Both the position numbers and the translations under genes were made by a program. Below, piece after piece: positions 6,001 to 28,272 of a stretch of 32,000 nucleotides of DNA. Under the pieces are notes generated by a model. That model had not been told where the DNA came from. It did not search any database and worked only from the letters and a program-made list of their open reading frames with translations. Each line of letters begins with the position of its first letter. Positions within the stretch are counted from its first letter, which is position 1. This stretch comes from Cyanobacteria bacterium UBA2566 (lineage in GTDB: Bacteria > Cyanobacteriota > Cyanobacteriia > Cyanobacteriales > Desertifilaceae). Location of the stretch: contig DDLS01000154.1 in assembly GCA_002340255.1 (NCBI GenBank), positions 23,444 through 55,443 of the forward strand, read 5' to 3'.

Positions 6001-6030
6001 CGGTTGAGAGGAAGGTGAGGTCTGATTCAT
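1..6030 (-). CDS. Type I modular PKS, module 5: KS-AT-cMT-KR(Tyr->His)-ACP with N- and C-terminal docking regions (2009 aa, complete in the window).
   Basis: ATG at 6028-6030 lies 2 nt after the upstream TAA, with AAGGAG 7-8 nt upstream inside the previous gene. Stop TAG at 1-3. Landmarks: KS Cys 5398-5400, AT Ser 4024-4026 (GHSVGEY, HAFHS), cMT RILEIGAGTGGTT at 2392-2430, KR YLITGGLGGLG at about 1161-1197, ACP Ser 280-282. Confidence 0.95.
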   Translation of the reverse strand: MNQTSPSSQPTPDSSRKMLQALKQMRGKLEALTQAQTEPIAIIGLGCRFPGGAKDSATYWHLLEQGIDAISEVPGDRWNLEDYYDPEGGKPGKTYTKEGGFIENVDRFDPHFFRISPRDAVGLDPQQRILLEVTWESLENAGVTLEHLRHSQTGVYMGICTDDYASLRIQYQEQGGTDESSGLGMGRSIGVGRISHFLGLQGPNIQLDTACSTSLVAIHLACQSLRSRESNLALAGGVNLILSPTSTIGRCQLNMLSRDGRCKTFDASADGYGQGEGCGVVVLKRLSDALADGDFIWGLIRGSAINHDGPSSGMTVPSRMAQKKVIQEALKSAKLSPHQVSYVETHGTGTSLGDPIEIEALSAIYGKNRSQENPLMMGSVKTNFGHLEAAAGVAALIKVILSLQHRQIPPHLHIQQPNPHIDWDRLPLKIPQSLLDWETESEPRIAGISSFGASGTNAHILVEETPVKQPEKSEAEDSSEPPVQLLTLSTKTPKALGELVHSYQDYLSTYPELDLANLAYTTHLGRSHFNHRLALITSSHSALQQQLHSYLLEPAEAIAVYGAEVSTSTEPPEIAFLFTGQGSQYVNMGRQLYESSPVFREAIAQCNTILGYELDRPLLEILYPDSEAEPSPLLDRTAYTQPALFALEYALFKLWQSWGIQPRVVMGHSVGEYVAACVAGVFSLEDGLRLMAARGRLIQNLPQNGLMAAVKASESDLRPRLLPYQKQAAIAAINGPESVVISGEKTILKDIVEQLESEGIKTQNLPISHAFHSPLIEPILAEFRAVAQQIAYHPPQIPFVSNVTGEQAGEAIATAHYWVDHLRQPVKFASAMTAMQDYPIFLELGPKPILLGMGRSCVSDDRGMWLPSLRPGIGDWQQMLSSLGQLYTQGVEIDWSGFHHQQKRHKVFLPTYPFQRQRYWLEQPKSAPHQPSWGSLGSPQELSALTERLQKKGSLSETELKLMPKLLELLAQEANETSDRPPILEECYGVQWRCRACFGSRFSGENLQSPPILQAQLVPQLSELANRPALQGYDKIPLQLEHLAREYIVQALQTLGWCYESGESFSLEQLAAQLGIIPAHHRLLKRLLVSLEEAQILHQTAEEWETLKSLPPVSPSSTYQTLRDRYPQAIAEFSLLHRCASQLSSVLQGTQDPVQLVFPEGDLTGATQLYQDSPVSQAMNSLVQQAIASLLETLPPSQGIRILEIGAGTGGTTSAILPTLPPSQIQYTFTDLGPLFLTKAKEKFSDYPFITYQTLDIEQNPASQRFPNHHYDLIIAANVLHATSNIRHTLTHVRQLLAPGGLLLLLEATEPQQWVDLIFGLLEGWWKFSDTEYRRDHPLLNRHQWQHLLQETGFTPVSSLPQEAKVDDVLSKQALILAQADSEPRKPNATSQSWLIFADRTGVAQTLAAQLEDLAATCILVGRGDNYQRIAPKHWQIDPHNPQDFRKLMAEVAIEYPQLSGIVQCWTLEPPTDSYLSLEDLNRLSELGCGTTLSLVQAIIEQERFSPQLQIVTQGSQSALHHGGQPPGIAQSSLWGMAKAIRLEHPELSCRVLDLDPQTSLEEQATSLLQELGSSDSEDQVVWREQVRYVPRLVKTSSESTSGRVKLRSDATYLITGGLGGLGLLVADWMIERGAQHLVLVTRRPADPATQAKLTQLEQKGCSIRVEIADVANFEAIQAVFNTMTPSSYPLAGIIHAAGMLSDGVLKNQTWSSFEAVMAPKVQGAWILHQLTQHQSLDFFVLFSSVGSLFGSPGQGNHSAANAFLDALAHYRQGIGLPGLSIHWGAVSQVGEAAERGADVRVKQKGMEALSPDEVLKALEHWMGSAQAEVGVVSMEWAAWEEQVRTWPFLSDWQKTDSLISAPSKASILQQLEMALPSEQQDLLIAHIRHQVAQVLGIEKVESISLKEGFFDLGMDSLTSVELKNKLQTSLGCSLPSSLMFDYPTVSELVNYLAGHVLDSEGDREEVPTTEKFAPPWGEKGNRGDPDLEEDSDEDVELSLLNKLDQLGY
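166..408 (-). other. ACP5 carrier domain.
   Basis: FFDLGMDSLTSVELKNKL; Ser codon at 280-282. Confidence 0.85.
481..1857 (-). other. KR5 ketoreductase domain with the catalytic Tyr replaced by His (approximate bounds).
   Basis: YLITGGLGGLG, HAAGMLSD, APKVQGAWILH and FSSVGS are present. The motif reads GQGNHSAANAFLD, with the His codon at 757-759. Confidence 0.8.
1936..2943 (-). other. cMT5 C-methyltransferase domain (approximate bounds).
   Basis: RILEIGAGTGGTT (2392-2430), AANVLHAT, LLLLLE, LLEGWWKF. Confidence 0.8.
3451..4311 (-). other. AT5 acyltransferase domain (malonyl-type).
   Basis: FLFTGQGSQ, GHSVGEY (Ser 4024-4026), AARGRLIQ, ISHAFHS. Confidence 0.85.
4636..5919 (-). other. KS5 ketosynthase domain.
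   Basis: LDTACSTS (Cys 5398-5400), ETHGTGTSLGDP, KTNFGHLEAAAG. Confidence 0.85.
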
Positions 6031-6032
6031 GG

Positions 6033-8984
6033 TTACTCTCCTTCGGCTAACAAGGTTTCAATCCCTTCGAGTTCTTGGGAAATTTCATCTTCTAACTGCT
6101 CATCCGATAAGTCACTGAGTTCTGCACTCCATGGAGTCGAGGAGGTTGGATTTTGCTCCCCAGAAGCGGGTTCAGTAAAGAACTCTGTGAGGATAAATTC
6201 GGCTAAATCCCGGATATTCGAGCAATCAAATAAAGTGGCGGCACTCAGGGCACAGGATAAGCCAGCACTGAGTTCATTTCTTAGCTCAACGGCGGTGAGG
6301 GAATCGATACCCATCTCAAAGAATCCTAGCTGTAAATCGGGAAGTTGGTTGGCTGGATATTTGAGCAGTTTACCGATTTCTTGTTGGATATATTGAGTTA
6401 AGCGTTTTTTACGCTCTGGCAAAGACGCTCTTTGCAGTTGGGTGAGAATTTCAGATTGGGGTGCTGTGGAGGGCGTTTCGTCTTCTTCGGGCGATCGCAA
6501 TCCCATGTGTTCCAAGAATAGGCGATCCTTACCCACGGTGTAAATCTCTTTGAACCGACTCCAATCGACCTCAGCTACAGTGGTTTGCACCTGAGAGCTA
6601 TTCCAAAGTTGCTCTAAGGCTCCCATCCCTTGGGCTGGAGAAATGGAGTACACGCCTCGCTTACTCAGCTCTTCTAAATCTTCTGCATTGGCCATACCGC
6701 CTCCAGACCAAGCCCCCCAATTAATACTCATCCCCGGTAAGCCCAGAGAGCTACGATAATGGACTAAGCTATCAAGAAAGGCATTGGCTCCGCCGTAGTG
6801 AGATTGACCAAAAGAACCCCAAACGGCAGCAATGGACGAAAAGCAGACAAAACACTCTAGGTCTAGAGTTTGAGTCAGTTGATGGAGATTCCATCCTCCC
6901 GTCACTTTGGCCGCGAGAACGGACTCCAAGTCTGCATGGGTAATGTTTTCTACCGGTTCAATCCCTCCAGAAACCCCAGCTAGATGAATCACGCCTTTGA
7001 GGGGGGGCATGGAGTCGGGGATTTTCTCTATTACAGATTCTAAGGCTTGGCGATCGCACACATCGACTTGTAGCGCCCTCACCTTAGCGCCTTGTTCCTG
7101 CAAACGAGCAATCTGATTCTGTTTCTCTGGAGACGGTTGACTTCGACTGATTAAAATCAGAGATTTTGCTCCTTTCTCAATCATCCATTCAGCCGTTCGC
7201 AAACCCAGCGCTCCCAGTCCCCCAGTAATCAAATAAGTACCGTCTTCTGTAAAGGATACCGCTTCCGACTCAGCCACTAGGGTTTTCGCTAAACGGGCAA
7301 CATAGGCTTGTCCAGAACGAAACGCAATTCGGTCTTCAGCCGTGGGATTGAGCAGTTCGGCGAGCAATACTTCCACCCCATCCATTTCTGGGTCTAAGTC
7401 CACTAAAGCTCCCCATAAGTGAGGATGTTCTAAAGACACTACCTGTCCAAATCCCCATAAACTCGATTGAGCAACGGCTAAGTTTTTGGGATTTTTCCCT
7501 ACGGGTTGACTCCCTTGAGTCACGAGCCAAAGTTTCGGCCAGTTCCTCTTTAAGCCCGATTTGAGCAAACCTTGCAGGAGATGTAGGGCACTGCCACAGC
7601 CCAAATTTTGGGCAGTTCTTAACCCCTCTTCACTTAAGTTTTCTGGAGTAGAACTCCCCAAACTCCAGAGATGAATCACTCCTCGCCAATCTTCAGGATG
7701 AGTTGCCACTAATTTCTGGCACAGGTCTGTAAACTCTTGGGGGTTTAAGGGGTTAACTTCCCAATCTTCTGGTTCCTTGTGTTGAGTCTGACCTTCTGGA
7801 TAAACTAATGTACACTGCTGACCCTGTTTTTCTAGCAAACCTTTTAAGCGTTTCCCGAACCCGTTTCGATCCGCTAAAATCAGCCAATGTCCAGGCTTTT
7901 GTTCTGTAGAAACTTTGGGATTTTCTTCCCGCAGTTGCCATTCAATGCCATAGAAAAGCTGTTGTAGGGAGACCTCTGGATAAGTGAGAGAAACGTCAAG
8001 CTGTTTCTGGTTTAATTCATACAGTTCTTGAACGGATAGATTCTCCTGTTTTTGTGCAGTGACCAGGACATAGCTCAATAATCCCTTACGCAATAACTTG
8101 TATAAGTTCATGTAGGACTCAATCCCAGTTTTGGCATTTTCGTTTAGGTTCTTGAGCTGGCAAATATAATCAATATTGTCTTGTACATTGGGGTCATAGA
8201 GTCCATTGCCGACTTCATGGCTAATATCCACATAACTGACGACTTGCAGATGATGGTTAGAGAGTAGTTCAATCCATTCAGCTTTGGTAATTAGATAGGA
8301 AGAGTGGGCTTCGTAGTCAATGGAGAAGGACGCATTGGAGAAAAAGTCAGCAAAGACGAGATGTCCATTCTCATTCAGGTGGCGATCGATGTTATCAAAG
8401 AGTCCTTTTTTATCGGGAATATGACAAATGACTTCAAATCCATAGACTAAATCGTAGGAACCTGGGAAATCATCTTTAGAACTATCTCGACGTAAAATTT
8501 GCGCGCGGTCTTGTAACTTGAATTTCTCGATTTTACCGCTTCCAATTTCTACTTGCTTGCTGGATAAGGTATATCCCGTGACGGATAAATGGGGATACTT
8601 GCGAGTGAGTTCAACGACATCTGTTCCATGACCACAGCCCACATCCAAGGCTCTTTGACAGGCTGAGAAGTCGATGACTCTCCAGGACATTCTCCTCATT
8701 TCCTGTCGAGCGGCTCTTGCTATTTCGTAAGATTGGGTAGATTTTTCACCAATAAACACCCAGGAAAAGCCATTAATGATTTGGGGAAGTGCTGGGTAGT
8801 TAATAATCGCGTCTTCATCTTCAATTGCCGATAATTCATCATAGTAATCACCCAGAAGCGTTTTCGACTCATTAGGGCCATTTTGACCATTGTTCAACAA
8901 CAGGATTTCTAAAGCTCGCAGTTGTTCTGGAGAGAGTCGAGACAGTCGCTGAAATATTTGAGCCAAATCTTCAAACTGATTCAT
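6033..8984 (-). CDS. PKS processing and carrier protein MT-KR-ACP (second half of split module 4), 983 aa, with N- and C-terminal docking regions.
   Basis: ATG at 8982-8984. The N-terminal class I SAM-MT fold has LDVGCGHGTD (about 8625-8651), YDLVYGFEVICHI and NGHLVFADF. The KR has YLITGGLGALG, AAKVTGGW, FSSIAAVWGSFGQSHYGGANAF and a complete K/S/Y set. The ACP has MGIDSLTAVEL. Acidic C-terminal helix LSDEQLEDEISQELEGIETLL. Confidence 0.92.
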   Translation of the reverse strand: MNQFEDLAQIFQRLSRLSPEQLRALEILLLNNGQNGPNESKTLLGDYYDELSAIEDEDAIINYPALPQIINGFSWVFIGEKSTQSYEIARAARQEMRRMSWRVIDFSACQRALDVGCGHGTDVVELTRKYPHLSVTGYTLSSKQVEIGSGKIEKFKLQDRAQILRRDSSKDDFPGSYDLVYGFEVICHIPDKKGLFDNIDRHLNENGHLVFADFFSNASFSIDYEAHSSYLITKAEWIELLSNHHLQVVSYVDISHEVGNGLYDPNVQDNIDYICQLKNLNENAKTGIESYMNLYKLLRKGLLSYVLVTAQKQENLSVQELYELNQKQLDVSLTYPEVSLQQLFYGIEWQLREENPKVSTEQKPGHWLILADRNGFGKRLKGLLEKQGQQCTLVYPEGQTQHKEPEDWEVNPLNPQEFTDLCQKLVATHPEDWRGVIHLWSLGSSTPENLSEEGLRTAQNLGCGSALHLLQGLLKSGLKRNWPKLWLVTQGSQPVGKNPKNLAVAQSSLWGFGQVVSLEHPHLWGALVDLDPEMDGVEVLLAELLNPTAEDRIAFRSGQAYVARLAKTLVAESEAVSFTEDGTYLITGGLGALGLRTAEWMIEKGAKSLILISRSQPSPEKQNQIARLQEQGAKVRALQVDVCDRQALESVIEKIPDSMPPLKGVIHLAGVSGGIEPVENITHADLESVLAAKVTGGWNLHQLTQTLDLECFVCFSSIAAVWGSFGQSHYGGANAFLDSLVHYRSSLGLPGMSINWGAWSGGGMANAEDLEELSKRGVYSISPAQGMGALEQLWNSSQVQTTVAEVDWSRFKEIYTVGKDRLFLEHMGLRSPEEDETPSTAPQSEILTQLQRASLPERKKRLTQYIQQEIGKLLKYPANQLPDLQLGFFEMGIDSLTAVELRNELSAGLSCALSAATLFDCSNIRDLAEFILTEFFTEPASGEQNPTSSTPWSAELSDLSDEQLEDEISQELEGIETLLAEGE
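6195..6422 (-). other. ACP4 carrier domain.
   Basis: FFEMGIDSLTAVELRNEL. Confidence 0.85.
6540..7892 (-). other. KR4 ketoreductase domain, intact and A-type-like.
   Basis: YLITGGLGALG, AAKVTGGWNLH, FSSIAAVWGSFGQSHYGGANAF. Confidence 0.8.
8040..8807 (-). other. Class I SAM-dependent methyltransferase domain of a different family from cMT1, cMT3 and cMT5. It is probably an O-MT.
   Basis: LDVGCGHGTDVVEL (glycine-rich SAM loop), D/E-containing motif II (SVTGYTLS), YDLVYGFEVICHIPD, NGHLVFADF. It shows no similarity to the LEIGAGTGGTT / NVLHAT / LLEGWW family. The O-MT call is by positional analogy to O-MT-KR-ACP modules and is not proven. Confidence 0.6.
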
Positions 8985-9036
8985 AATGCATTACCCTATT
9001 TTTTGATGACTTTTATAGATTTTTACTATTTTACTT

Positions 9037-21000: not shown

Positions 21001-22300
21001 ATGGCATGACTTGAGTCGGCACTTGTACCGGTGTTTCTGACCACTCAATATAAGGATTTGGGTTTTGAAAATGTAAGTGAGGAGCAATTGTTTTATGTTG
21101 AAGCTGCAAAACAACTTTAATTAAACCCGCAATTCCTGAAGCCGCTTCTGCATGACCAATATTTGTTTTTACCGAGCCAATGAAGACCGGATTTTGGGGG
21201 GAGTGACTGTCTTTAAAAATCGCTCTTAAAGCCCCAACTTCAATGGGGTCCCCTAAAGCCGTTCCTGTACCATGAGCTTCAATATAGCTGACTTCTTTTG
21301 GGTCTAGTTGGCTATTCTTGAGAGCTTGAGCAATTACCGCTTGCTGTGAGATGCCGTTGGGAACGGTTAATCCACTGGTCTGACCATCTTGATTGATGGC
21401 TGTTCCTCGAATAATTGCTAATACCCGATCGCCGTCAGCTTGGGCATCAGATAAACGTTTGAGGACAACTATTCCACAGCCTTCACTGCGCACAAATCCA
21501 TCGGCTTTAGCATCAAATGTTTTGCATCTGCCATCAGCCGATAACATTCTGGCTCTAGAATGGTTGATATGAATTAAGGGTGAAATCAGGAAATTTACAC
21601 CTCCGGCTAGAGCGACATGGCTTTCTCTATTTCTTAAGCTGGCACAAGCTAAATGTAGGCTAACGAGTGAGGATGAACAGGCGGTATCTACAGCAAAGTT
21701 TGGCCCGACTAATCCTAAACTATAGGAAAGTCTTCCTGATGCGGTACTATTGGCATTCCCGCTAATCATATAGGCATCAATTTCTTTGAGATCCCGACTA
21801 GCTAACTTTTGCAGATAGTCATGGGTACTAATGCCAATGAAAACCCCTGTTTTGGTTCCCATTAAATGTTGGGGATTAATGGTGGCATGTTCTAAGGCTT
21901 CCCACGTGACTTCTAAAAGCAATCGTTGCTGAGGATCGAGAGAGGTTGCTTCTTTCGCTGAAAGGTTGAAAAATTCTGCGTCAAATTCTTTTAATGGGTT
22001 GACAAAACCCCCAGATTGTGTGTAGATTGTGCCGGGAGTTTCTGGGTTAGGGTCATAGTAGTCTTCGAGATTCCAGCGATTTTGAGGAATTTCTGTAATC
22101 GCATCGGTTCCTTCAGATAAAAGGTTCCAGAAGGATTCTGGGCTATTGACTCCTCCTGGAAATCGACAGCCTAGACCGACGATCGCAATTGGCTCTTGAT
22201 GAGAGTTTTCTAGTTTCTTGAGTTTAGATTCTAATTTTTCTATGGCTAAGAGCGATCGCTGTAAAGGAGTTAATTGTCGTAGCTTGTTGGCTTTGTCCAT
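12029..22300 (-). CDS. Type I modular PKS, bimodular (3423 aa): module 2 KS-AT-KR-ACP and module 3 KS-AT0-cMT-KR0-ACP, with N- and C-terminal docking helices.
   Basis: Uninterrupted ORF with ATG at 22298-22300, preceded on the minus strand by GGGGG (SD-like) 11 nt after the upstream stop. It has two full KS motif sets (Cys codons at 21677-21679 and 17165-17167) and two ACP GMDSL serines (17855-17857 and 12320-12322). The N-terminus LTPLQRSLLAIEKLESKLKKLE is a coiled-coil docking type. Confidence 0.95.
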   Translation of the reverse strand: MDKANKLRQLTPLQRSLLAIEKLESKLKKLENSHQEPIAIVGLGCRFPGGVNSPESFWNLLSEGTDAITEIPQNRWNLEDYYDPNPETPGTIYTQSGGFVNPLKEFDAEFFNLSAKEATSLDPQQRLLLEVTWEALEHATINPQHLMGTKTGVFIGISTHDYLQKLASRDLKEIDAYMISGNANSTASGRLSYSLGLVGPNFAVDTACSSSLVSLHLACASLRNRESHVALAGGVNFLISPLIHINHSRARMLSADGRCKTFDAKADGFVRSEGCGIVVLKRLSDAQADGDRVLAIIRGTAINQDGQTSGLTVPNGISQQAVIAQALKNSQLDPKEVSYIEAHGTGTALGDPIEVGALRAIFKDSHSPQNPVFIGSVKTNIGHAEAASGIAGLIKVVLQLQHKTIAPHLHFQNPNPYIEWSETPVQVPTQVMPWTTENQSRIAGVSSFGFSGSNAHVIVEEASHIKVKSPRQESERSYHLLTLSAKTKPALSDLVNRYRNHIQDYPDLELNDICYSANTGRAHFKYRLAILASSKQELIQKLQDAEQEKEESKVGKLLRSGEAPKLAFLFTGQGSQYLNMGRQLYETEPVFQKAIQECDRILKTELDYSLIDVLYPDEVDPNVSDLLHQTQYTQPVLFSLEYALVQLWKSWGVEPDSVMGHSVGEYVAACVAGVFNLAEGLKLIAARGRLMQKLPEGGGMLAVRAAEYRVRDWIRAYGNQVSIAAINGQSNVVISGELLSLEKIAQALEKETIKTKFLQVSHAFHSPLMEPILEEFDSIARQVNYRQPSIPIISNVTGTKVDRDIATATYWVNHIQESVRFAQSMETLGKTGYGVFVEIGPQPILLGMGSQCLPENKGIWLPSLRPGIEDSIQILSSLGQLYSQGVDIDWSHFWQDYKRKKVDLPTYPFQGKTYWIESDRQDKTIQKDRGLDLEKYFYHLQWQPVDRVEKPVECPPGNWLIFVDDCQSLSDSLGTLLREKNKKVSWVYKGSGYEQIAENEYRVNPEHPQDFEDLLETLHLAGREHFETLLYLWSLDTPPTEQLNLERLKVAQDFGCGGVLHLVQALLKGTSLGKLWMVTRGAQSVSLTPERVNVATSPLWGWGTVLSLEHPQLWGGLVDLDGEKQEGEAQKLWRLIDNLEKEDRLAVRGEQIYCSRLLQLPVSEPKPVVLDPDGLYLITGGTGALGWHTAQWMVNQGAKHLLLVSRREPSGQKRAKIRELEEEGVEIQVVLADVRDRQQLSLIRQHQSRDRPLKGIIHAAGVVAIEPIEEISLGQLQEMMAAKVLGGWNLHQLSQDLDLDCFVTFSSIAAVWGSIGQAHYSAANAFLNGLVHYRQAQGLPGLSVNWGPWSGGGMAGEKELQELSKRGVNPLSPQQAIAALEQIWHSGRAQTTIANVDWTILAPLYQTGRQRRLLDEIPVDLPQSSSPEQTSEILQQIQAAPKHQQKELLLTCVQQEVAKVLGLSSNQLPNREQGFFELGMDSLMAVDLGTNLTRLLGVRLPSTLTFDFPNIEQLSHYLATEQLTVDPAPTPAQSAPPSSSLKEPIAIIGIGCRFPGGATDLDRFWQVLATGTNTRQEIPPDRWDFESVGDQIATPYGNFLSEVDRFDPTFFGIAPREATALDPQQRLLLEVTWEALERACAVPQRLAQQPVGVFIGNDGQDYAELVHQHLAQEPDSPIALHAGVGNTFSGMAGRLSYTLGLTGPAIAIDTACSSSLVALHQACNSLRLGECEMAIAGGVKLHLTPTSYLLASQANMLSADGLCKTFDATADGYSRGEGCAIAILKRWSDAQKDGNPVLAIIRGSAVNQDGPSSGFTVPNGQAQQRLIRQALRQAEIDPQEIGYLEAHGTGTSLGDPIELNAAAAVLGEGRSQDCPLWVGSVKTNIGHLEAAAGISGVVKVVLAMQHQTLPPHLNFNQPNPKIDWDNSAIAVPTQLTPWTVPGKRYAGVSSFGFTGVNAHVILEEAPAPDPQDPSVNPSDRPYHLVTLSAKTETALQELVTRVQRHLESHPHVKLADLAYSLNTGRAHLEHRLAPIAFSLQDLQEKLYRWQTGQQTPELWSGDLPSLMSSPKVAFLFPGEPLDSGNWGENLYKQSPIFKAAIDECDRLLSSQFPSSIVQFLYSHSQESQPEQPIRRSALFALEYALCQLWMSWGIEPDLLFGHDVGEYVAACVAGVFSLEDALRLITADSTHLTSIAQAIVYSPPRIPLLAIADSHPPISTPDYWITPRQLPYPWAEKIQTLQAQAEYLFLELGQTPSLSTTEQHSTPQKPDNYFLSLSSQGQEWQQLLSSLAQLYVRGVNGDWLGFDRPYLPNRKPLTLPTYPFQRERYWLKTPHSVLTQNQSSVNPNPPLPETPEILAQNLQQFGDLSPSEIALLPKLLDLLKQYQNNPQDPPIEPDPLAPWLYELHWKPKANFSGDRAAKFLPSPQDLYSTLNTTSQRLLAENDLQNYTEISAHLESLSVDYIIQCLQEIGWSYPVGEQLETATLIDRFGILPSASRLFNRMLQILAEEGILNQENHHWQVLQPLPEVNPKRQHQNLLNQYSTAKAELTLLGRCASQLSQVLRGTIDPVQLVFPQGDFTDAIEMYQGSPAAKVMNELIENVVVNSLKTIPDRQGIKILEIGAGTGGTTRSVLPHFAPEQTQYLFTDVGSLFTTKAQQKFQDYKFVTYQTLDIEVNPNTQGVESHHYDIIIAANVLHATRSLQETLSHVRQLLAPGGLLILLEANIQIRWVDLIFGLLEGWWRFEDTELRPDYPLLSREQWKKLLQETGFSQAITVPEFDPMPLVLSQQAVVVAQADKTGESSPQSLEKNWLIFADRQCLGQALAKTLDSRQENYRLVVPGEGINPQNPQEFDDLLTSFSLSSSTQTHVVYLWGLDSPGLEQMSPEAIQENLSWHSQSLLYLVQSLSRLNRLSSCRLWIATQDSQLVVADSSLSGLAQSFLWGMGLTISLEYPELWGGLIDLDPQVSWDESSRILCTEIDTPEGEDRIAFRGQSRYVQRLVKPDRQFSRSQTLDRNATYIVAGELGGLSLPITEWMVAQGFRDLVLISPEQPSPDQNAQINQLQNQGALIRLIQADLTGWEEVQRVFAELDRDRLPLKGIIYTFKLSNITRITEKLFSELKMEVHRGMLGLWNLHRITQNRELDCFVNCSSLASVVGLSGQIQQGASDYFADSVVRYRQIQGLSGLTLNWGVLSVGNLRGETELTEFKKRGVCALSTDTAKLTLTRMLQRKQGQAMVADIDWSIFKPLYEMGRQRLLLEEIELQSLSHEGQEQTGQILEQVNQASESERMDLVIGHIQQQTMRVLGLKEIQMPRAEQGFFEMGMDSLTSVEFKTRLEADFHCALPTTLVFEFPNILSLAEYIGRKVMGWDREDAEEMSQSGSNQLLEQEMEELTVDVGQLSEQEMEDLINQEWAELGLENDE
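12215..12440 (-). other. ACP3 carrier domain.
   Basis: FFEMGMDSLTSVEFKTRL; Ser codon at 12320-12322. Confidence 0.85.
12570..13870 (-). other. KR0: a degenerate ketoreductase-like domain in module 3.
   Basis: The NADPH motif reads YIVAGELGGLS (about 13221-13252) instead of YLITGGxGxLG. The AAKVxGxWNLH lysine region reads EVHRGMLGLWNLH. The catalytic Tyr position is Gln (GQIQQGASDYFAD; Gln codon 12806-12808). Confidence 0.8.
13950..14960 (-). other. cMT3 C-methyltransferase domain (approximate bounds).
   Basis: KILEIGAGTGGTT (14411-14449), AANVLHAT, LLAPGGLLILLE, LLEGWWRF. Confidence 0.8.
15326..16090 (-). other. AT0: a degenerate, truncated acyltransferase remnant in module 3.
   Basis: FLFPGEPLDSG replaces FLFTGQGSQ. 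GHDVGEY replaces GHSVGEY (Asp codon 15812-15814). LRLITADSTHL replaces L(K/R)L(I/M)AARG(R/K)L(M/I)Q, so the Arg is lost. There is no HAFH motif. The distance from the FLF motif to YPFQ is about 253 aa, against about 343 aa in AT1. Confidence 0.85.
16403..17674 (-). other. KS3 ketosynthase domain with an intact catalytic triad.
   Basis: AIDTACSSS (Cys 17165-17167), EAHGTGTSLGDP, KTNIGHLEAAAG. Confidence 0.85.
17741..17968 (-). other. ACP2 carrier domain.
   Basis: FFELGMDSLMAVDL; Ser codon at 17855-17857. Confidence 0.85.
18086..19438 (-). other. KR2 ketoreductase domain, intact and A-type-like.
   Basis: YLITGGTGALG, AAKVLGGWNLH, FSSIAAVWGSIGQAHYSAANAF. The K/S/Y set is complete, a Trp sits 8 residues before the Tyr, and there is no LDD motif. 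Confidence 0.8.
19751..20605 (-). other. AT2 acyltransferase domain (malonyl-type).
   Basis: FLFTGQGSQ, GHSVGEY, AARGRLMQ, VSHAFHS. Confidence 0.85.
20915..22195 (-). other. KS2 ketosynthase domain.
   Basis: AVDTACSSS (Cys 21677-21679), EAHGTGTALGDP, KTNIGHAEAASG. Confidence 0.85.
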
Positions 22301-22311
22301 GATGTACCCCC

Positions 22312-25300
22312 CTAATCCTCCAGTAGTGCATTCAATTTTTGATTAATCAATTCTTCAACTTCTTCTTCTGACAGGTCTTGTATTAGAGCATATCTTTCTT
22401 CAAGATCTTCCTCTAGGGTATCCTCCTGTTGTTCGGGAATAGAAGATGGGCTATTGGCTATGGGTGAGCCAGATAATTGTTGAAGCAGGTATTCAACTAA
22501 CTTGTCGATTGTCGGATAGTCAAATGCCAGGGTCGAGGGCAGAGTGATTTCCAAGTTTCTTTGTAGTTTATTGCGTAATTCAACGGAAGTCAAAGAATCC
22601 ATTCCCAGTTCAAAAAACTTATCTTCTAATCCAATTTCGCTAACGTTCTTAAGACCTAATATTGGGCCCATCTGATTCCGCAGATGAGAGATGAGCAGCG
22701 ATCGCCGCTCTTTGGGCGTAGCATTGCTTAACTGTTGTGCAATATTTGATTCAACAGTTGGGGTCACCTCAGTCGCTGTGGCTTTCTGTTGCCAATCTTC
22801 CAAGAAGGGAGAATGGGCAATCCGATCTTCCCAGATAGACCAATCCACATTGACAACGCCCACTTCCGTTAACTCTCCAGTCAAGAGAATCGCTAAAGCC
22901 TCTAAAACTTCGTCAGGGGAAATAGCATTTAACCCCTGTTGTTGTAAACGAATATCTGCACCCCGTTCTGCTGCTTCTCCGACTTTGGATACGGTTCCCC
23001 AATGAATACTTAATGCCGGTAGTCCCATACTGCGTCGATAATGAGCTAAATGATCGAGAAAAGCATTAGCAGCAGCATGGTTACTCTGTCCAGAAGAACC
23101 AAACAGAGAAGCAACAGACGAGAACAGAATGAAGAAATCTAAAGGTTGGTTCTTAGTAAGCTGGTGCAAATTCCAAGCCCCTTCTATTTTGGCTTTCATA
23201 ACGGGTTCAAAACTTGACCAAGTTTGATTTTGCAAGACGGCATCCGAGAGCATCCCCGCCGCATGAATCACTCCTGCTAGGGGGTATGGGGAGCGATTAA
23301 TGCGATCGCACACCTGGGTGATTGCGTCTAGATCGGATACATCGGCCCTTTCTACTGTCACGGAACACCCCGATTTCTTCAGTTGAGCTAATTTTTCTGC
23401 GGTTAACGCATCAGGAGAACGGCGACTGAGCAACACCAAATGTTGAGCGCCTTGCTCAATCATCCAACCTGCTACCAGCAAACCTAATCCCCCTAAACCT
23501 CCTGCGATTAGATAAGTCACGTCTTTACCGAGGCTGGGAGGAATGGATGGTGTAGCCAGATCGTTCGGGACTAACCGAGAAACATAACGGCGTTGTCCTC
23601 GAAAAGCCACTTGATTTTCACCCTCCCTTGAATGGAGTTCATCCAATAAGTTTAATGCCTGAGTCTCCACCGATTCTGTTGGGTCAAGATCGACTCGAAC
23701 ACAGTTCAATTCTGGGTGTTCTAAGTCAATTACTTTGGCCATCCCCCATACTGGAGATTGGGCGAGTCCAGATAATAGAGGTTCGGGTTCAGGAAGGGGT
23801 TGCACGCCTTGGGTTACGACCCATAATTTGGGCGGTTGGCTATTCTCAAGTTTGACTAATTCTTGCACTAAGGATAAGGTCGCGCCACATCCTGATTTCA
23901 ACCATTCGTTTAACGGTTCTCTCTGAAGGATATCTCCCCTTTCCAGAGTCCAGCATTGCACCACTCCATATAAACTTGACTGTTGGACAATTTCAGTCAT
24001 CATTTGTCCAAACTCTAAAGGGTGGTGAGGATTAAGGATAAATTCTGCTGCTCCAATCTTTTGATAGTTTTCTCCAGGAAATACCAACGTGCAAGAGTGT
24101 CCGACTGAACGTAAATGGGTCGCTAGGTGCTGGGCAATTCCCTCTGGATCTGCCAAAATCAACCAATGTTGAGAGACTGCTCGGTCTTCGAGTCTAGCGG
24201 TTTCTTCTGCTTGTGCAATCATCACGACTTGGTCAGAAGAGAGGTCTAATTGCCCCGATTGTTCAGGGAGGATGACCGGCTCGCTAAATCCCGTTTCCTT
24301 CAACAGTTGCTGCCATTGCAGCCGATTGAGCAATGGATAATCAGGACGCAATTCATGATCTTGAAATCTCCACCATCCTTCTAACAGTCCAAAAACCAAA
24401 TCTAGCCATAGGTTCTGGGTTGCAACTTCTAATAAGACAATGAGTCCCCCTGGAGCGAGTAACTGATGTACGTTGTTTAAGGTCTGTTTGAGGTTTTCAG
24501 TCGCATGAAGGACATTAGCCGCGATCGCGATATCGTATTGATGTAAATCAACATTCTGTTGTTCGAGATCGCTTTCAATATCTAACGTTTGGTACGAAAC
24601 AAAGGAATAGTCCTGAAATTTTTCTTGTGCTTTCCGGAGAAATAGGGGCCCTAGATCGGTAAAAACATATTGGGTTCGACTCGGTTGAAGGTGGGGGAGA
24701 AGGTAAGCGGTTGTTCCTCCTGTTCCTGCGCCGATTTCTAAGATTCTGACCCCTTGCCTTGGAGGTAACTTTTCTATCACTTGGCTGACTGCGCGTTGGA
24801 CGATGGTATTCATCGCCTGAGCAGTGGGAGACTCTTGATAGAGGTGTGTTGCTGCGGTCAAATCCCCTTCTGGAAAGACTAGCTGTACCGGGTCTATCGC
24901 TCCTCGTAATACGGCACTCAACTGAGACGCACAACGGTGAAGAAGCGTTAATTCGGCAACGATATCTGGATATTTCTGTAATCTCGACTGATAAATTTGA
25001 CTGGGATTTACGGGGGGTAGCTCTTGTACAACTTCCCATTGTTGCGATCGTTTTTTAAGCATTCCTTCTTGAACAAGAACTTGTAAAATCCGATTAAACA
25101 GTTGTTTTTGGCTATTGACGATCCCTAATTTTTGGGTGACTCTCTCTAGTGAAAACAGCTCTGTTGGCTGATAAGACCAGCCCATTTCATCTAGGGCTTG
25201 TATAATATACTCTATACCAATTTTCTCTAATAGAGTCAGAATATTTTCTGAAGTTCCTTCCTTGAGTTCTAACTGACCCAAAATAGATTGACGTTCCATG

Positions 25301-28272
25301 TCTACCGGTTGGATTAACCGGGTCTGACCAAAACCTACTTTTTCTCGCCAATCTATAGAATAAAAATAATCATGAATGCCCGCTTTTCCTAACTCTTGTC
25401 GATGTTGCTTGACCAAACACTTCAGTAATTTGGGAAGTAAATCAACTTCATGAGGACTAAAATCTTCAACCGTTCTCAATCGTTCAGTTAAAGGCGATAT
25501 CTCGCCCTGATTCAATAAGTTGATAATTGATGTTCCTTCGTTAATTTCAGAATCTTCTATCCAATACTTTTCTCCTTGAAATGGATAAGTCGGCAAAGAA
25601 ACTTTCTGTCCAGAGAAACCAAAACTTTCATAAAATCCTAACCAATTTACCTTCGCCCCTTTTACATAGAATTCCCCTAAACTAGAGAGCATTTGTTGCC
25701 ATTCTGGTATTCCTGGACGTAAGGAAGGCAAGCATAGGCCGCCTTCCTCAGGTAAACACTCTCTTCCCATGCCCAACAATACAGGTTTTGGCCCAATTTC
25801 CAAGAAATTTTCATATCCTTGCTCACATAAGGTCACCATGCTTTGTGCAAATCTAACCGGTTCTTTGATATGATTCACCCAATATTGAGCAGTGCTGACT
25901 TCTTCTCCAACTTTTATACCTGTCACATTAGAAACTAACGGGATTTTGGGCTGACGATAAGTTACTCTTTTAGCTATCGCTTCAAATTCAGCTATCATGG
26001 GTTCCATCAATGGGGAATGAAAGGCATGGGAGACTTGTAGCGTTTTAGTTTTAATTCCCAGACTTTCTAATTGACTACAAATTGCTGCTAAAGCTTCTAT
26101 TTCCCCTGATATGACAATACTTCGTTGCCCATTAAAAGCGGCGATACTAACTTGTTTAGAATAGTTCTTTATGACTGCTTTGACTTGAGTTTCCGATGCT
26201 AATACAGAGACCATTTGGCCGCCGGGAGGCAAGCGTTGCATTAATTGTCCCCGCATGGCGATTAGTTTCAAACCTTCTTCTAAGGTGAAGACTCCGGAAA
26301 TACAAGCAGCGACATATTCTCCGACACTATGACCCATCACAATACTGGGTTTTATTCCCCAAGATTCCCATAGTTTAGCTAAGGCATACTCTACAGCAAA
26401 GAGAGCGGGTTGGGTATAAGCAGTTTGGTGAATGAGAGAGGCCTCAAGGGGCTGAGATTCATCAGGATATAAAACTTTTAATAGAGGGACTTCTAAATAG
26501 GATTTTAGAATTGTGTCACATTCGTCTAAAACCTGGCGAAAAGTTGGGTGTCTTTCATATAATTGTCGTCCCATATTGATAGATTGAGACCCTTGACCGG
26601 TAAATAGAAAAGCCACATCTTGAGAGTGGGCTGACGGTGCTGTTCCTCGAATGACCCCGTAGGTGTAAGGTTGGTTGACAAATTCTAAGAGTTTTTCCTC
26701 TAACTCTTGCTTCGACTCAGCCACGATTGCTAGTCTTTCTTCAAAATGCGCCCGTCCTAGGGTACTGGTATAGCAAATGTCTGCTATTTCAGATTCATTC
26801 TGAGATTGTAAATAAGGGATATAATTCTGGGCTAAGTCTTGCAGCGCGGGTTTGGTTTTAGCACTAAGCGTTAATATATTGAATGAAGGAGCTAGTTCTG
26901 TTTGTAGTTTGTCTTGTTCGGGCGGTTCTTCCAAAACGATATGAGCGTTGACTCCTCCAAAACCAAAGGAACTTACTCCGGCTCGCCTAGGAACTATTTC
27001 TCCATTTTCTGTAATTAGTGGTTTCCATTCTTGAGTTTCTCTGACTAGATAAAATGGTGTGTGCTTTAAGTCTATTCGAGTATTGAGTTTCTGGAAGTTA
27101 ATGATTTTAGGTATTTTTTTGTTTTTTATCGATAATAAAACTTTGATTAATCCAGCTATTCCGGCGGCGGCTTCTGTATGCCCAATATTCGTTTTTACTG
27201 CTCCTAGACCACAGTAGGGATTTTGTGGTGCTGGGATTCCATAGTGTTGATGGAGTTGTTTGAAACTCCGTTTGAGACTATTGATTTCTATGGGATCTCC
27301 CAAGGGTGTTCCTGTACCATGGGTTTCTATGTAAGAAACGGTGTTAGGCGCGATATTGGCTTGGGTATAGGCAGCTCGTAGAACTTGAGTTTGAGCATAA
27401 ATATTAGGAGCGGTTAATGTTCTTGCTTTGCCCCCATGATTGACGGCACTTCCTTTGATAACACCATAAATTTGATCTCGGTCTAATCGGGCTTGTTCTA
27501 GAGGTTTTAATAGGATTATTCCGGCTCCTTCTCCTCTAACATAGCCATCGGCTTGGCTATCAAATGTTTTGCATTGCCCTGTTGGAGATAACATGCCGAG
27601 CTGACTGAATGATATATAGCTGGTGGGAGTGCATAATATATTGATTCCACCTACAAGTGCCATTTGGCATTCTTGTGCTTGAATGGAATTGATGGCTTGG
27701 TGCAGAGCAACTAGAGAACTCGAACAAGCGGTATCTACGGGCACACTAGGACCATGAAAGTTAAAGAAATAAGAGATTCTGTTAGCAATCATGCAGGTGT
27801 ACGTTCCTGTGGCGGTATGTCCCTGAATATTGCCATTTTGATGTTGTATTTGATTATAGTCAGAGTTGCAAACACCGATAAATACTCCTATCTGGTTTCC
27901 GGAGAGTTCTAACGGTGAATAACCTGCATCTTCTAAACAAGACCAACTCAATTCTAGGAGAATCCTCTGTTGAGGGTCTATTCGACTGGCTTCCCTTGGC
28001 GAAATCCCGAAAAATCCGGCATCAAATTTATCAATGCCTTCGATTAATCCGGACCATTTACTAATCGTTTTGTTGGCAGTCTCTGGAATGGAAGAGTAAA
28101 ATTTGTCAATATCCCATCTCTGGGATGTGGTAGTGATACTATTGACTCCTTGGAGTAAATTATTCCAGTATTCACTGTAGCTTTTTGCGCCAGGGAAGCG
28201 ACAGCTTATGCCCACAACAGCTATGGATCGCTCATGGTGATTGGTTTCGTTCTCATTCGTTGCAGAAATCAT
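22312..28272 (-). CDS. Type I modular PKS, module 1: KS-AT-cMT-KR(Tyr->His)-ACP plus a C-terminal docking helix. It is the first gene of the PKS operon.
   Basis: Uninterrupted 1989-codon ORF. Motifs: KS DTACSSS / HGTGT / NIGHTEAAAG; AT GHSVGEY and HAFHS; cMT LEIGAGTGGTT, ANVLHAT and LLEGWW; KR YLIAGGLGGLG; ACP LGMDSLTSVEL; acidic C-terminal helix EEEVEELINQKLNALLED. The ORF-track start at 28281 is TTG. The first ATG is at 28272 (MISATNE...) and I prefer it. Stop codon TAG at 22312-22314. Confidence 0.93.
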   Translation of the reverse strand: MISATNENETNHHERSIAVVGISCRFPGAKSYSEYWNNLLQGVNSITTTSQRWDIDKFYSSIPETANKTISKWSGLIEGIDKFDAGFFGISPREASRIDPQQRILLELSWSCLEDAGYSPLELSGNQIGVFIGVCNSDYNQIQHQNGNIQGHTATGTYTCMIANRISYFFNFHGPSVPVDTACSSSLVALHQAINSIQAQECQMALVGGINILCTPTSYISFSQLGMLSPTGQCKTFDSQADGYVRGEGAGIILLKPLEQARLDRDQIYGVIKGSAVNHGGKARTLTAPNIYAQTQVLRAAYTQANIAPNTVSYIETHGTGTPLGDPIEINSLKRSFKQLHQHYGIPAPQNPYCGLGAVKTNIGHTEAAAGIAGLIKVLLSIKNKKIPKIINFQKLNTRIDLKHTPFYLVRETQEWKPLITENGEIVPRRAGVSSFGFGGVNAHIVLEEPPEQDKLQTELAPSFNILTLSAKTKPALQDLAQNYIPYLQSQNESEIADICYTSTLGRAHFEERLAIVAESKQELEEKLLEFVNQPYTYGVIRGTAPSAHSQDVAFLFTGQGSQSINMGRQLYERHPTFRQVLDECDTILKSYLEVPLLKVLYPDESQPLEASLIHQTAYTQPALFAVEYALAKLWESWGIKPSIVMGHSVGEYVAACISGVFTLEEGLKLIAMRGQLMQRLPPGGQMVSVLASETQVKAVIKNYSKQVSIAAFNGQRSIVISGEIEALAAICSQLESLGIKTKTLQVSHAFHSPLMEPMIAEFEAIAKRVTYRQPKIPLVSNVTGIKVGEEVSTAQYWVNHIKEPVRFAQSMVTLCEQGYENFLEIGPKPVLLGMGRECLPEEGGLCLPSLRPGIPEWQQMLSSLGEFYVKGAKVNWLGFYESFGFSGQKVSLPTYPFQGEKYWIEDSEINEGTSIINLLNQGEISPLTERLRTVEDFSPHEVDLLPKLLKCLVKQHRQELGKAGIHDYFYSIDWREKVGFGQTRLIQPVDMERQSILGQLELKEGTSENILTLLEKIGIEYIIQALDEMGWSYQPTELFSLERVTQKLGIVNSQKQLFNRILQVLVQEGMLKKRSQQWEVVQELPPVNPSQIYQSRLQKYPDIVAELTLLHRCASQLSAVLRGAIDPVQLVFPEGDLTAATHLYQESPTAQAMNTIVQRAVSQVIEKLPPRQGVRILEIGAGTGGTTAYLLPHLQPSRTQYVFTDLGPLFLRKAQEKFQDYSFVSYQTLDIESDLEQQNVDLHQYDIAIAANVLHATENLKQTLNNVHQLLAPGGLIVLLEVATQNLWLDLVFGLLEGWWRFQDHELRPDYPLLNRLQWQQLLKETGFSEPVILPEQSGQLDLSSDQVVMIAQAEETARLEDRAVSQHWLILADPEGIAQHLATHLRSVGHSCTLVFPGENYQKIGAAEFILNPHHPLEFGQMMTEIVQQSSLYGVVQCWTLERGDILQREPLNEWLKSGCGATLSLVQELVKLENSQPPKLWVVTQGVQPLPEPEPLLSGLAQSPVWGMAKVIDLEHPELNCVRVDLDPTESVETQALNLLDELHSREGENQVAFRGQRRYVSRLVPNDLATPSIPPSLGKDVTYLIAGGLGGLGLLVAGWMIEQGAQHLVLLSRRSPDALTAEKLAQLKKSGCSVTVERADVSDLDAITQVCDRINRSPYPLAGVIHAAGMLSDAVLQNQTWSSFEPVMKAKIEGAWNLHQLTKNQPLDFFILFSSVASLFGSSGQSNHAAANAFLDHLAHYRRSMGLPALSIHWGTVSKVGEAAERGADIRLQQQGLNAISPDEVLEALAILLTGELTEVGVVNVDWSIWEDRIAHSPFLEDWQQKATATEVTPTVESNIAQQLSNATPKERRSLLISHLRNQMGPILGLKNVSEIGLEDKFFELGMDSLTSVELRNKLQRNLEITLPSTLAFDYPTIDKLVEYLLQQLSGSPIANSPSSIPEQQEDTLEEDLEERYALIQDLSEEEVEELINQKLNALLED
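22477..22719 (-). other. ACP1 carrier domain.
   Basis: FFELGMDSLTSVELRNKL; Ser codon at 22594-22596. Confidence 0.85.
22792..24174 (-). other. KR1 ketoreductase domain with the catalytic Tyr replaced by His (approximate bounds).
   Basis: YLIAGGLGGLG, HAAGMLSD, KAKIEGAWNLH and FSSVAS are all present, but the motif reads GQSNHAAANAFLD. The His codon is at 23077-23079, where KR2 and KR4 have Tyr. Confidence 0.8.
24247..25254 (-). other. cMT1 C-methyltransferase domain (approximate bounds).
   Basis: RILEIGAGTGGTT, AANVLHAT, LLAPGGLIVLLE, LLEGWWRF. It sits between the AT and KR, as in known PKS cMT modules. Confidence 0.8.
25732..26619 (-). other. AT1 acyltransferase domain with malonyl-type motifs (approximate bounds).
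   Basis: FLFTGQGSQ, GHSVGEY (Ser codon 26326-26328), AMRGQLMQ, VSHAFHS. Confidence 0.85.
26917..28230 (-). other. KS1 ketosynthase domain, divergent subtype (approximate bounds).
   Basis: Cys186 codon at 27724-27726 in VDTACSSSLVALH, plus ETHGTGTPLGDP and KTNIGHTEAAAG. Distinct signatures are GISCRFPGAKSYSEYWNNL, ANRISYFFNFHGPS, SAVNHGGKARTLTAPN and SSFGFGGVNAHIVLEE. Confidence 0.85.

Follow-up and report, generated by a model that had tools for sequence, protein, structure and literature searches.

According to a review that cites Keatinge-Clay 2012, the active-site tyrosine of ketoreductase (KR) domains is "sometimes replaced by histidine" (PMC7327777), and this one sentence was all that our literature phrase searches for a KR tyrosine replaced by histidine returned. 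A histidine at this position is also present in the long-studied HMWP1 (irp1) of yersiniabactin biosynthesis, whose domains run ketosynthase-acyltransferase-C-methyltransferase-KR-acyl carrier protein (KS-AT-cMT-KR-ACP). NAD(P)H-dependent reduction has been assigned to the HMWP1 KR (PMC9547227), and the purified proteins YbtE, HMWP1, HMWP2, and YbtU have yielded yersiniabactin in vitro (PMC5995452). The variant is therefore already known, and the novelty of describing another one is modest. Here we report on such a domain, KR1, encoded at 22792-24174 on the minus strand of a 32,000-nucleotide stretch of Cyanobacteria bacterium UBA2566 (contig DDLS01000154.1, positions 23,444 to 55,443 of the forward strand). 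This stretch, hereafter the window, belongs to a metagenome scaffold of 58 kb and carries a modular polyketide synthase (PKS) with five KRs. Judging from its motifs and its relatives, KR1 is in all probability, and likewise KR5 of the same cluster, a working B-type (LxD) NADPH-dependent beta-ketoreductase belonging to a widespread subfamily in which His stands in for Tyr and the lid Met has given way to Glu or a small residue.

The translation of 22792-24174 is free of stop codons and yields a KR didomain within gene A (22312-28281, minus strand), consisting of a structural subdomain (psiKR, 23668-24162) and a catalytic Rossmann subdomain (22987-23517). Pfam searches of the gene A product placed PF21394 at residues 1374-1538 and PF08659 at residues 1589-1765 (E 4e-67). 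The CAT codon at 23077-23079 specifies His1735, which sits in ...GSSGQSNHAAANAFLD. When the five KRs of the window were aligned with MAFFT, the His1735 column held Tyr in KR2 (GQAHYSAAN) and KR4 (GQSHYGGAN), His in KR5 (GQGNHSAAN), and Gln in KR3 (GQIQQGASD). Comparison with solved KRs using phmmer gave the same placement, as no gaps occur through FSS...GQxxY/HxxxN and the KR1 His falls on the catalytic Tyr, for example of AmpKR2 (3MJS; FSSGAAVWGSGGQPGYAAANAYLD) and TylKR1 (2Z5L). AmpKR2 is the best solved relative of KR1 (E 7e-58), and the alignment spans 350 residues to both AmpKR2 and EryKR1.

Apart from the Tyr of YxxxN, which is missing (HAAAN), KR1 has the features of a PKS KR. The didomain is accompanied by an NADPH-binding Gly loop, GGLGGLG (23482-23502), by the Arg for the NADPH 2'-phosphate (SRR after strand beta2), and, in the catalytic stretch at 23065-23250, by Lys1698 (23188-23190), Ser1721 (23119-23121), and Asn1739 (23065-23067), all on the minus strand. 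A preliminary description of this DNA, made from the sequence by itself, had reported both the His in the catalytic Tyr position and the retention of the other motifs, and the alignments bear it out on both counts. For the stereochemical type we used the Keatinge-Clay and Caffrey fingerprints, in which B-type KRs are recognised by an L-x-D motif some 57 residues ahead of the catalytic one and by the lack of a Trp at -8; KR1 has LSD at residues 1678-1680 (23242-23250) and Phe rather than Trp at -8 (SLFGSSGQSNH).

The active site of KR1 departs from the canonical one at a second place, as its lid residue Glu1769 (GEAAERG, 22975-22977, minus strand) occupies the column that holds Met in the GMA of Tyr-type KRs. 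The solved B-type KRs TylKR1 and EryKR1 (2FR0) and the A-type AmpKR2 share with KR1 the didomain, the Gly loop, and the Lys/Ser/Asn set, and the two B-type domains share the LxD motif as well, but all three have a Tyr acid and the GMA Met where KR1 has His and Glu, and their modules, from actinomycetes, use methylmalonyl units and lack a cMT. The C-type PikKR3 (3QP9) is a much weaker match to KR1 (E 8e-27 vs 7e-58 for AmpKR2). KR5, encoded by gene E (catalytic subdomain 667-1200, minus strand), is built like KR1, with His1758 at 757-759 and lid Glu1792 at 655-657; the two are 65% identical and have the lid string GEAAERGAD in common. The idea that KR1 differs by a single substitution, put forward in the preliminary description, therefore does not hold, because the lid change from GMA to GEA is found in both KR1 and KR5 and covaries with His among homologues.

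In the protein database, the 117 homologues closest to KR1 have His at the Tyr column in 55 cases and Tyr in 60; the typical His string is GSPGQGNHSAANAFL, and all 10 homologues that also have an upstream enoylreductase (ER) fragment carry His. Residue conservation was compared over 100 His-type and 97 Tyr-type KRs, the four further domains with other residues at the column being degenerate. The His-type KRs hold their critical residues at least as strictly as the Tyr-type, with Lys and Asn present in all 100, Ser and the 2'-phosphate Arg in 99 each, the Gly loop in 99-100, and the Asp of LxD in 97. Because the cofactor-binding and catalytic residues are kept throughout these 100 domains, the comparison supports the earlier suggestion that the Tyr site of His-type KRs is under selection rather than in decay. 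We also looked in this comparison for another Tyr that might serve as a substitute, which had been named beforehand as a finding that would speak against the catalytic significance of the His. Only two other conserved Tyr columns were present, both equally conserved in Tyr-type KRs, and none was peculiar to the His-type.

No other column distinguishes His-type and Tyr-type KRs as well as that of the lid residue, which lies 34 positions downstream of the His/Tyr column. Of the 97 Tyr-type KRs, 63 have the Met of WGxWxxxGMA there, while the 100 His-type KRs have Glu in 48, Ala in 36, and Met in one. A homologous Met of the actinorhodin KR, M194, presumably lines the substrate pocket, which we take as a lead only. 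We accordingly draw the His-type subfamily as KRs with His at the Tyr column and no lid Met (Glu, Ala, or Ser instead); KR1 (His1735/Glu1769) and KR5 (His1758/Glu1792) both belong to it, and both follow directly on a CurJ-type cMT in a cis-AT module.

On a rough neighbour-joining tree, His and Tyr interchange about 25 times. The clade that holds KR1 and KR5 comprises 57 His and 6 Tyr domains, with Tyr revertants inside the His clade, and such repeated switching argues for a near-equivalent function of the two residues. The apratoxin proteins AprG and AprI give a close-up of one such change: over their cMT-KR-ACP region (about 898 aa) they are 87% identical, yet both sites differ, AprI having GQGNH with lid Glu (GEAAERG) and AprG having GQGMANY, that is, Tyr with a two-residue insertion, with lid Arg (GRALG). 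AprG is encoded in a locus of Moorena bouillonii PNG (L023, 2073-10901) that corresponds to AprE-F-G-H by open reading frame (ORF) sizes and Pfam domains. A further KR of the sample (P0002) combines Tyr with a lid Met. Two side observations belong here. Pfam detects a dehydratase (DH) in AprG that the 2011 apratoxin paper (PMC3075265) does not list, and plasmid pNsp_c of the cryptophycin producer Nostoc sp. ATCC 53789 encodes a KS-AT-DH-cMT-KR protein (L082, 9148-17973) whose KR has Tyr together with a GEAAERG lid and looks like a Tyr revertant within the His clade.

The preliminary description had noted that Tyr-less KRs of the window follow cMTs and had proposed that KRs from cMT modules of public cyanobacterial PKSs be scored at the Tyr position. 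We scanned species-representative genomes with an alignment of the cMT domain, which gave 79 loci from cyanobacteria, Proteobacteria (Gamma- and Alphaproteobacteria), Desulfobacterota (Desulfobacterales), Acidobacteriota, Planctomycetota, and others. Across all loci, the KR downstream of the cMT had His in 49 cases and Tyr in 24. Restricted to B-type KRs with decidable context, the count was 48 His and 15 Tyr after a cMT, compared with 0 His and 11 Tyr for B-type KRs without a cMT in the same loci (His in 48/63 vs 0/11; Fisher p ~2e-6, uncorrected for relatedness). Conversely, every one of the 48 His-KRs with decidable context follows a cMT, and all 48 are of the LxD type. A second search, for cMT-KR proteins (n=116), returned 81 with His and 35 with Tyr. 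The link between cMTs and His-type KRs is thus confirmed as real and general. It is not absolute, as one protein (P0044) has the order DH-psiKR-KR(His) and lacks a cMT, and Tyr persists in the McyG-like A-type KRs that follow cMTs. The lid follows the same pattern: in loci with known context, Met is present in 14/18 KRs without a cMT, in 6/20 Tyr-KRs after a cMT, and in 0/45 His-KRs.

We considered whether His tracks the ER rather than the cMT. The scorable DH-ER-KR modules that have no cMT (L011, L025) carry Tyr, though these are two cases only, and this reading was set aside. Separately, six loci from Caldora, Okeania, and Symploca (L016-L021) contain, at about 8001-8990, close homologues of the cMT that share 58-60% identity, and no psiKR, KR, DH, or ER was detected in the several kb downstream of these cMTs; their architecture is a different one and uninformative on KRs.

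The module context of the His-KRs bears directly on whether they reduce. The 49 His-KRs of the loci include 23 in DH-cMT-ER-KR modules, 13 in DH-cMT-KR modules, and 5 in cMT-ER-KR modules, and in the second sample, from the protein database, His was present in 34 of 36 cMT-ER-KR proteins. A His-KR in a module with DH or ER should be a working one, since the DH or ER would otherwise be without substrate.

Three characterised pathways allow the comparison to be taken further. HMWP1, which we took from a Klebsiella pneumoniae plasmid (NZ_CP015754.1; L083, 2959-12450), resembles modules 1 and 5 of the window in having KS-AT-cMT-KR-ACP and no DH. Its cMT yields a gem-dimethyl group. Its KR reads YSSAAATLGAPGQSAHALACGYLD (GQSAHALAC at the motif) and aligns without gaps against KR1 FSSVASLFGSSGQSNHAAANAFLD; like KR1 it has His at the Tyr column, an LxD motif (LAD), the Lys and the Ser, and no lid Met. 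It differs from KR1 in its Cys in place of the Asn of the catalytic set (HALAC vs HAAAN), in the Arg at its lid, and in its proteobacterial host.

AprI (P0141, Moorena bouillonii PNG) has the motif GQGNHSAANA and the lid GEAAERG. It is described as a KS-AT-DH-MT-KR-T protein (MT, methyltransferase; T, thiolation domain) that adds a C-methylated unsaturated acetate unit (PMC3075265). In the carmabin pathway of Moorena producens 3L, a KR-ACP protein (P0026, UniProt F4Y2B4) belongs to a DH-cMT-ER-KR(His)-ACP module, the last PKS module, which is followed by nonribosomal peptide synthetase (NRPS) modules with, without, and with an N-methyltransferase. CarI is F4Y2B0 of the same genome (GCA_001942475.1), and the order of accessions puts the carmabin His-KR four genes upstream. 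Carmabin A bears 2,4-dimethyl-9-decynoic acid, so C3 has been fully reduced, and colinearity suggests that the His-KR module makes the 2-methyl saturated end of this 2,4-dimethyl-9-decynoate. In the catalytic subdomain, KR1 shares 64% identity with the carmabin KR and 62% with that of AprI, values comparable to the 65% between KR1 and KR5. Both of these KRs match KR5 in their active-site and lid strings (GQGNHSAANAFL, GEAAERGAD) and stand directly after a CurJ-type cMT. They differ in what follows: the AprI module adds a DH and the carmabin module a DH and an ER, so that the alcohol is processed on, whereas modules 1 and 5 would keep it.

On this basis, a course of events can be proposed for module 1. 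KS1 would condense the starter with malonyl-ACP (AT1 has HAFH and is of the malonyl type), the CurJ-type cMT would methylate C2 of the beta-ketoacyl-ACP, and KR1 would transfer the NADPH hydride to C3 while His1735, positioned by Ser1721, Lys1698, and Asn1739, would give the proton instead of Tyr. The remodelled lid Glu1769 may partner the His1735 imidazole. The predicted product is 2-methyl-3-hydroxyacyl-ACP, and module 5 would do the same. Reduction by KR1 itself, His as the proton donor, and the stereochemistry are predictions that draw on motifs and on analogy with the systems above.

Several points weigh against a reducing KR1 and should be set beside this. Modules 1 and 5 have neither DH nor ER, so nothing in the cluster demands reduction. 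The HMWP1 KR, with 34% identity to KR1 and Cys for Asn, is an analogue and not a close relative, and it is the one His-KR documented here that leaves a free hydroxyl. The apratoxin and carmabin evidence rests on colinearity, and in apratoxin biosynthesis the module that leaves a 2-methyl-3-hydroxy unit is that of AprG, whose KR has gone back to Tyr. No solved His-KR structure was among the best PDB matches, and the literature searched yielded no solved structure and no kinetic study of His as general acid in a reductase of the short-chain dehydrogenase/reductase fold.

The preliminary description had offered two readings of KR1, a redox-inactive domain, structural or epimerase-like, that would leave a beta-ketone, and a non-canonical reductase that uses His, and the evidence from DH and ER contexts and from the three pathways favours the second. 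If KR1 and KR5 were redox-inactive scaffolds or epimerases (C-type), modules 1 and 5 would deliver 2-methyl-3-ketoacyl intermediates. This would agree with the loss of the canonical Tyr, with the lack of a DH or ER in these modules that would require an alcohol, and with the presence in the same cluster of a truly dead KR after a cMT (KR3). Nevertheless, we regard it as very unlikely. Incompetent KRs lose cofactor-binding or catalytic residues beyond one site, while KR1 and KR5 retain everything but the Tyr, at 97-100% across the subfamily; the C2-type epimerases are reported to use the very Tyr that KR1 and KR5 lack (PMC7327777); and His-KRs are the rule in cMT-ER-KR modules and occur in HMWP1, AprI, and the carmabin module, all with reduced products. 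Normal reduction by His-type KRs had been named in the preliminary description as the observation that would overturn its inactive reading, and the modules and pathways point to exactly that. An error in the metagenome contig, with TAT read as CAT, is conceivable in that a single base separates the two codons and the source is a metagenome scaffold; we give it practically no weight, as the His recurs, along with the covarying lid change, in KR5 and in over 150 homologues, found in isolates and metagenomes alike. A subtler alternative is that KR1 is active but that water, a ribose-Lys relay, or the lid Glu donates the proton and His orients the carbonyl. The covariation of the lid with His, the acidic Glu in KR1 and KR5, and the Ala lid in about a third of His-KRs do suggest a remodelled active site rather than a single-point change. 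However, His, which defines the subfamily and is thus invariant within it, alternates at this site only with Tyr, a known acid (100 His, 97 Tyr, and four others that are degenerate), and the lid Glu is not universal among His-KRs, and we consider this account rather doubtful.

The meaning of the cMT link is a separate question. His-KRs might simply be inherited in a cMT-psiKR-(ER)-KR cassette that has spread by recombination, with no coupling between methylation and His. The nearest His-KRs of KR1 do form one large clade (57 His and 6 Tyr), the AprG and AprI cassettes are 87% identical within one pathway, Tyr-type KRs function after cMTs (15 B-type, besides the A-type McyG-like ones), and at least one His-KR lacks a cMT (P0044, DH-psiKR-KR). 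We take this account seriously and could well see it prove correct, but we lean towards functional coupling of some kind between cMT and His, because His-KRs after cMTs span several phyla, down to 35-45% identity, because His and Tyr have switched many times, and because the lid Met is depleted in cMT modules even among Tyr-KRs (6/20 vs 14/18 without a cMT); the counts are not phylogenetically corrected. A stronger form of coupling, which we put forward only as a speculation with a modest chance of being right, is that His-type KRs are a mechanistic subclass co-evolved with cMTs, in which His and Glu/Ala retune catalyst and lid, confining the KR to the 2-methylated beta-ketoacyl-ACP or making it wait until this intermediate has formed. 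Tuning against early reduction would make sense because methylation needs the beta-keto group.

We now turn to the other KRs of the window. KR2 (catalytic subdomain 18251-18781, minus strand) and KR4 (6705-7241, minus strand), whose modules have no cMT, both have the catalytic Tyr (Tyr1320 at 18341-18343 and Tyr730 at 6795-6797) and a Trp at Tyr-8, which marks them as A-type, as the preliminary description had said. It had also grouped together three Tyr-less KRs after cMTs, with His in module 1, Gln in module 3, and His in module 5. The residues are as given, but pooling module 3 with the others is misleading. KR3 (12716-13249, minus strand; Gln3165 at 12806-12808 in the Tyr column) has a Gly loop altered to GELGGLS, Gly for Lys, Gln for Tyr, Asp for Asn, and YTFK in place of the HAAG strand, and is only 31% identical to KR1. 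With cofactor-binding and catalytic residues both lost, it shows the C-type feature and fits the reductase-incompetent class of PikKR3, into which KR1 and KR5 do not fit. The AT of the same module is likewise a remnant (AT3, about 15386-16120, minus strand; gene B residues ~2061-2305), with GHSVG changed to GHDVG, GQGSQ changed to GEPLD, and about 85 residues including the HAFH motif deleted, while the motifs of KS3, cMT3, and ACP3 are retained. Because its Gly loop, Lys, Tyr, and Asn are gone and AT3 is also a remnant, KR3 is, by its sequence, a decayed domain in a partly decayed module, in which ACP3 would need to be loaded in trans or else module 3 would be skipped. The Tyr-less KRs of the window are thus of two kinds, the decayed KR3 and the conserved His-type KR1 and KR5.

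The large genes of the window are all encoded on the minus strand and together make up a colinear cis-AT PKS: gene A (22312-28281; KS-AT-cMT-KR1-ACP), gene B (12029-22300; KS-AT-KR2-ACP-KS-AT-cMT-KR3-ACP), gene C (9037-12045; KS-AT), gene D (6033-8984; MT-KR4-ACP), and gene E (1-6030; KS-AT-cMT-KR5-ACP). The methyltransferases of module 1 (24286-25257; Pfam HTH_51 and Methyltransf_12), module 3 (13988-14998; motifs intact), and module 5 (1957-2964) are CurJ-type cMTs, the module 1 domain matching the CurJ cMT structure 5THY at E 1e-139. Module 4 is split over two proteins (6033-12045), gene C providing KS-AT and gene D an O-methyltransferase (O-MT), KR, and ACP; its methyltransferase (8247-8714) is of the StiD/StiE type (StiE O-MT structure 6ECX, E 2e-59) and not a cMT. 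Every AT that retains its specificity motif has HAFH or HGFH and is thus of the malonyl type, which leaves the cMTs as the only source of the alpha-methyl groups.

Downstream of the window, the scaffold encodes a sixth module, KS-AT-O-MT-like MT-KR6-ACP with a B-type, Tyr-containing KR6, and after it an NRPS module with the order condensation-adenylation-KR-peptidyl carrier protein (C-A-KR-PCP), the KR being embedded after the A domain (both in L001, 16035-26030). The latter resembles depsipeptide synthetases that incorporate alpha-keto acids. Taken together, this is an uncharacterised hybrid cluster in which six PKS modules, containing three cMTs and two O-MTs between them, precede an NRPS module that has a KR embedded in it. 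Besides the 2-methyl-3-hydroxy units proposed for modules 1 and 5, module 2 would give a 3-hydroxy unit through its A-type KR and modules 4 and 6 would give 3-methoxy units (KR and O-MT); with KR3 dead, a 2-methyl-3-keto unit would persist from module 3 if that module extends, with ACP3 loaded in trans.

Gene A starts 17 residues ahead of its KS (28230-28281, minus strand), with no loading domains and without the N-terminal docking-like helix present in genes B, C, and E, and no source of the starter unit is present within the window. The divergent neighbours at 28512-31654 on the plus strand have signalling functions (DICT-HD, pentapeptide repeat, response regulator, and RDD). The gap between genes A and B is 11 bases (22300-22312), and the stop of gene B and the start of gene C overlap by 17 bases (12029-12045), a compact spacing that suggests translational coupling. 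ORFs of 224 aa (2955-3629, plus strand, antisense) and 154 aa (24575-25039, minus strand, in another frame) inside the PKS genes are most likely spurious.

Although the His variant as such is known, its systematic association with cMTs and the covariation of the lid may be under-described. Were the speculation about a co-evolved subclass true, the retuning of His and lid would enforce the order methylate-then-reduce inside a single module, and HMWP1 offers a ready in vitro system for testing His as a general acid. There is also a practical side. Rule-based tools for cluster annotation commonly call a KR inactive when its catalytic Tyr is missing. Such a rule would wrongly predict ketones in most cMT modules and would mis-draw two of the six polyketide units of this cluster. 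We propose instead that a B-type KR following a cMT be taken as active if it combines His with an intact Gly loop, Lys/Ser/Asn, and a non-Met lid, and that a KR like KR3 be read as dead.

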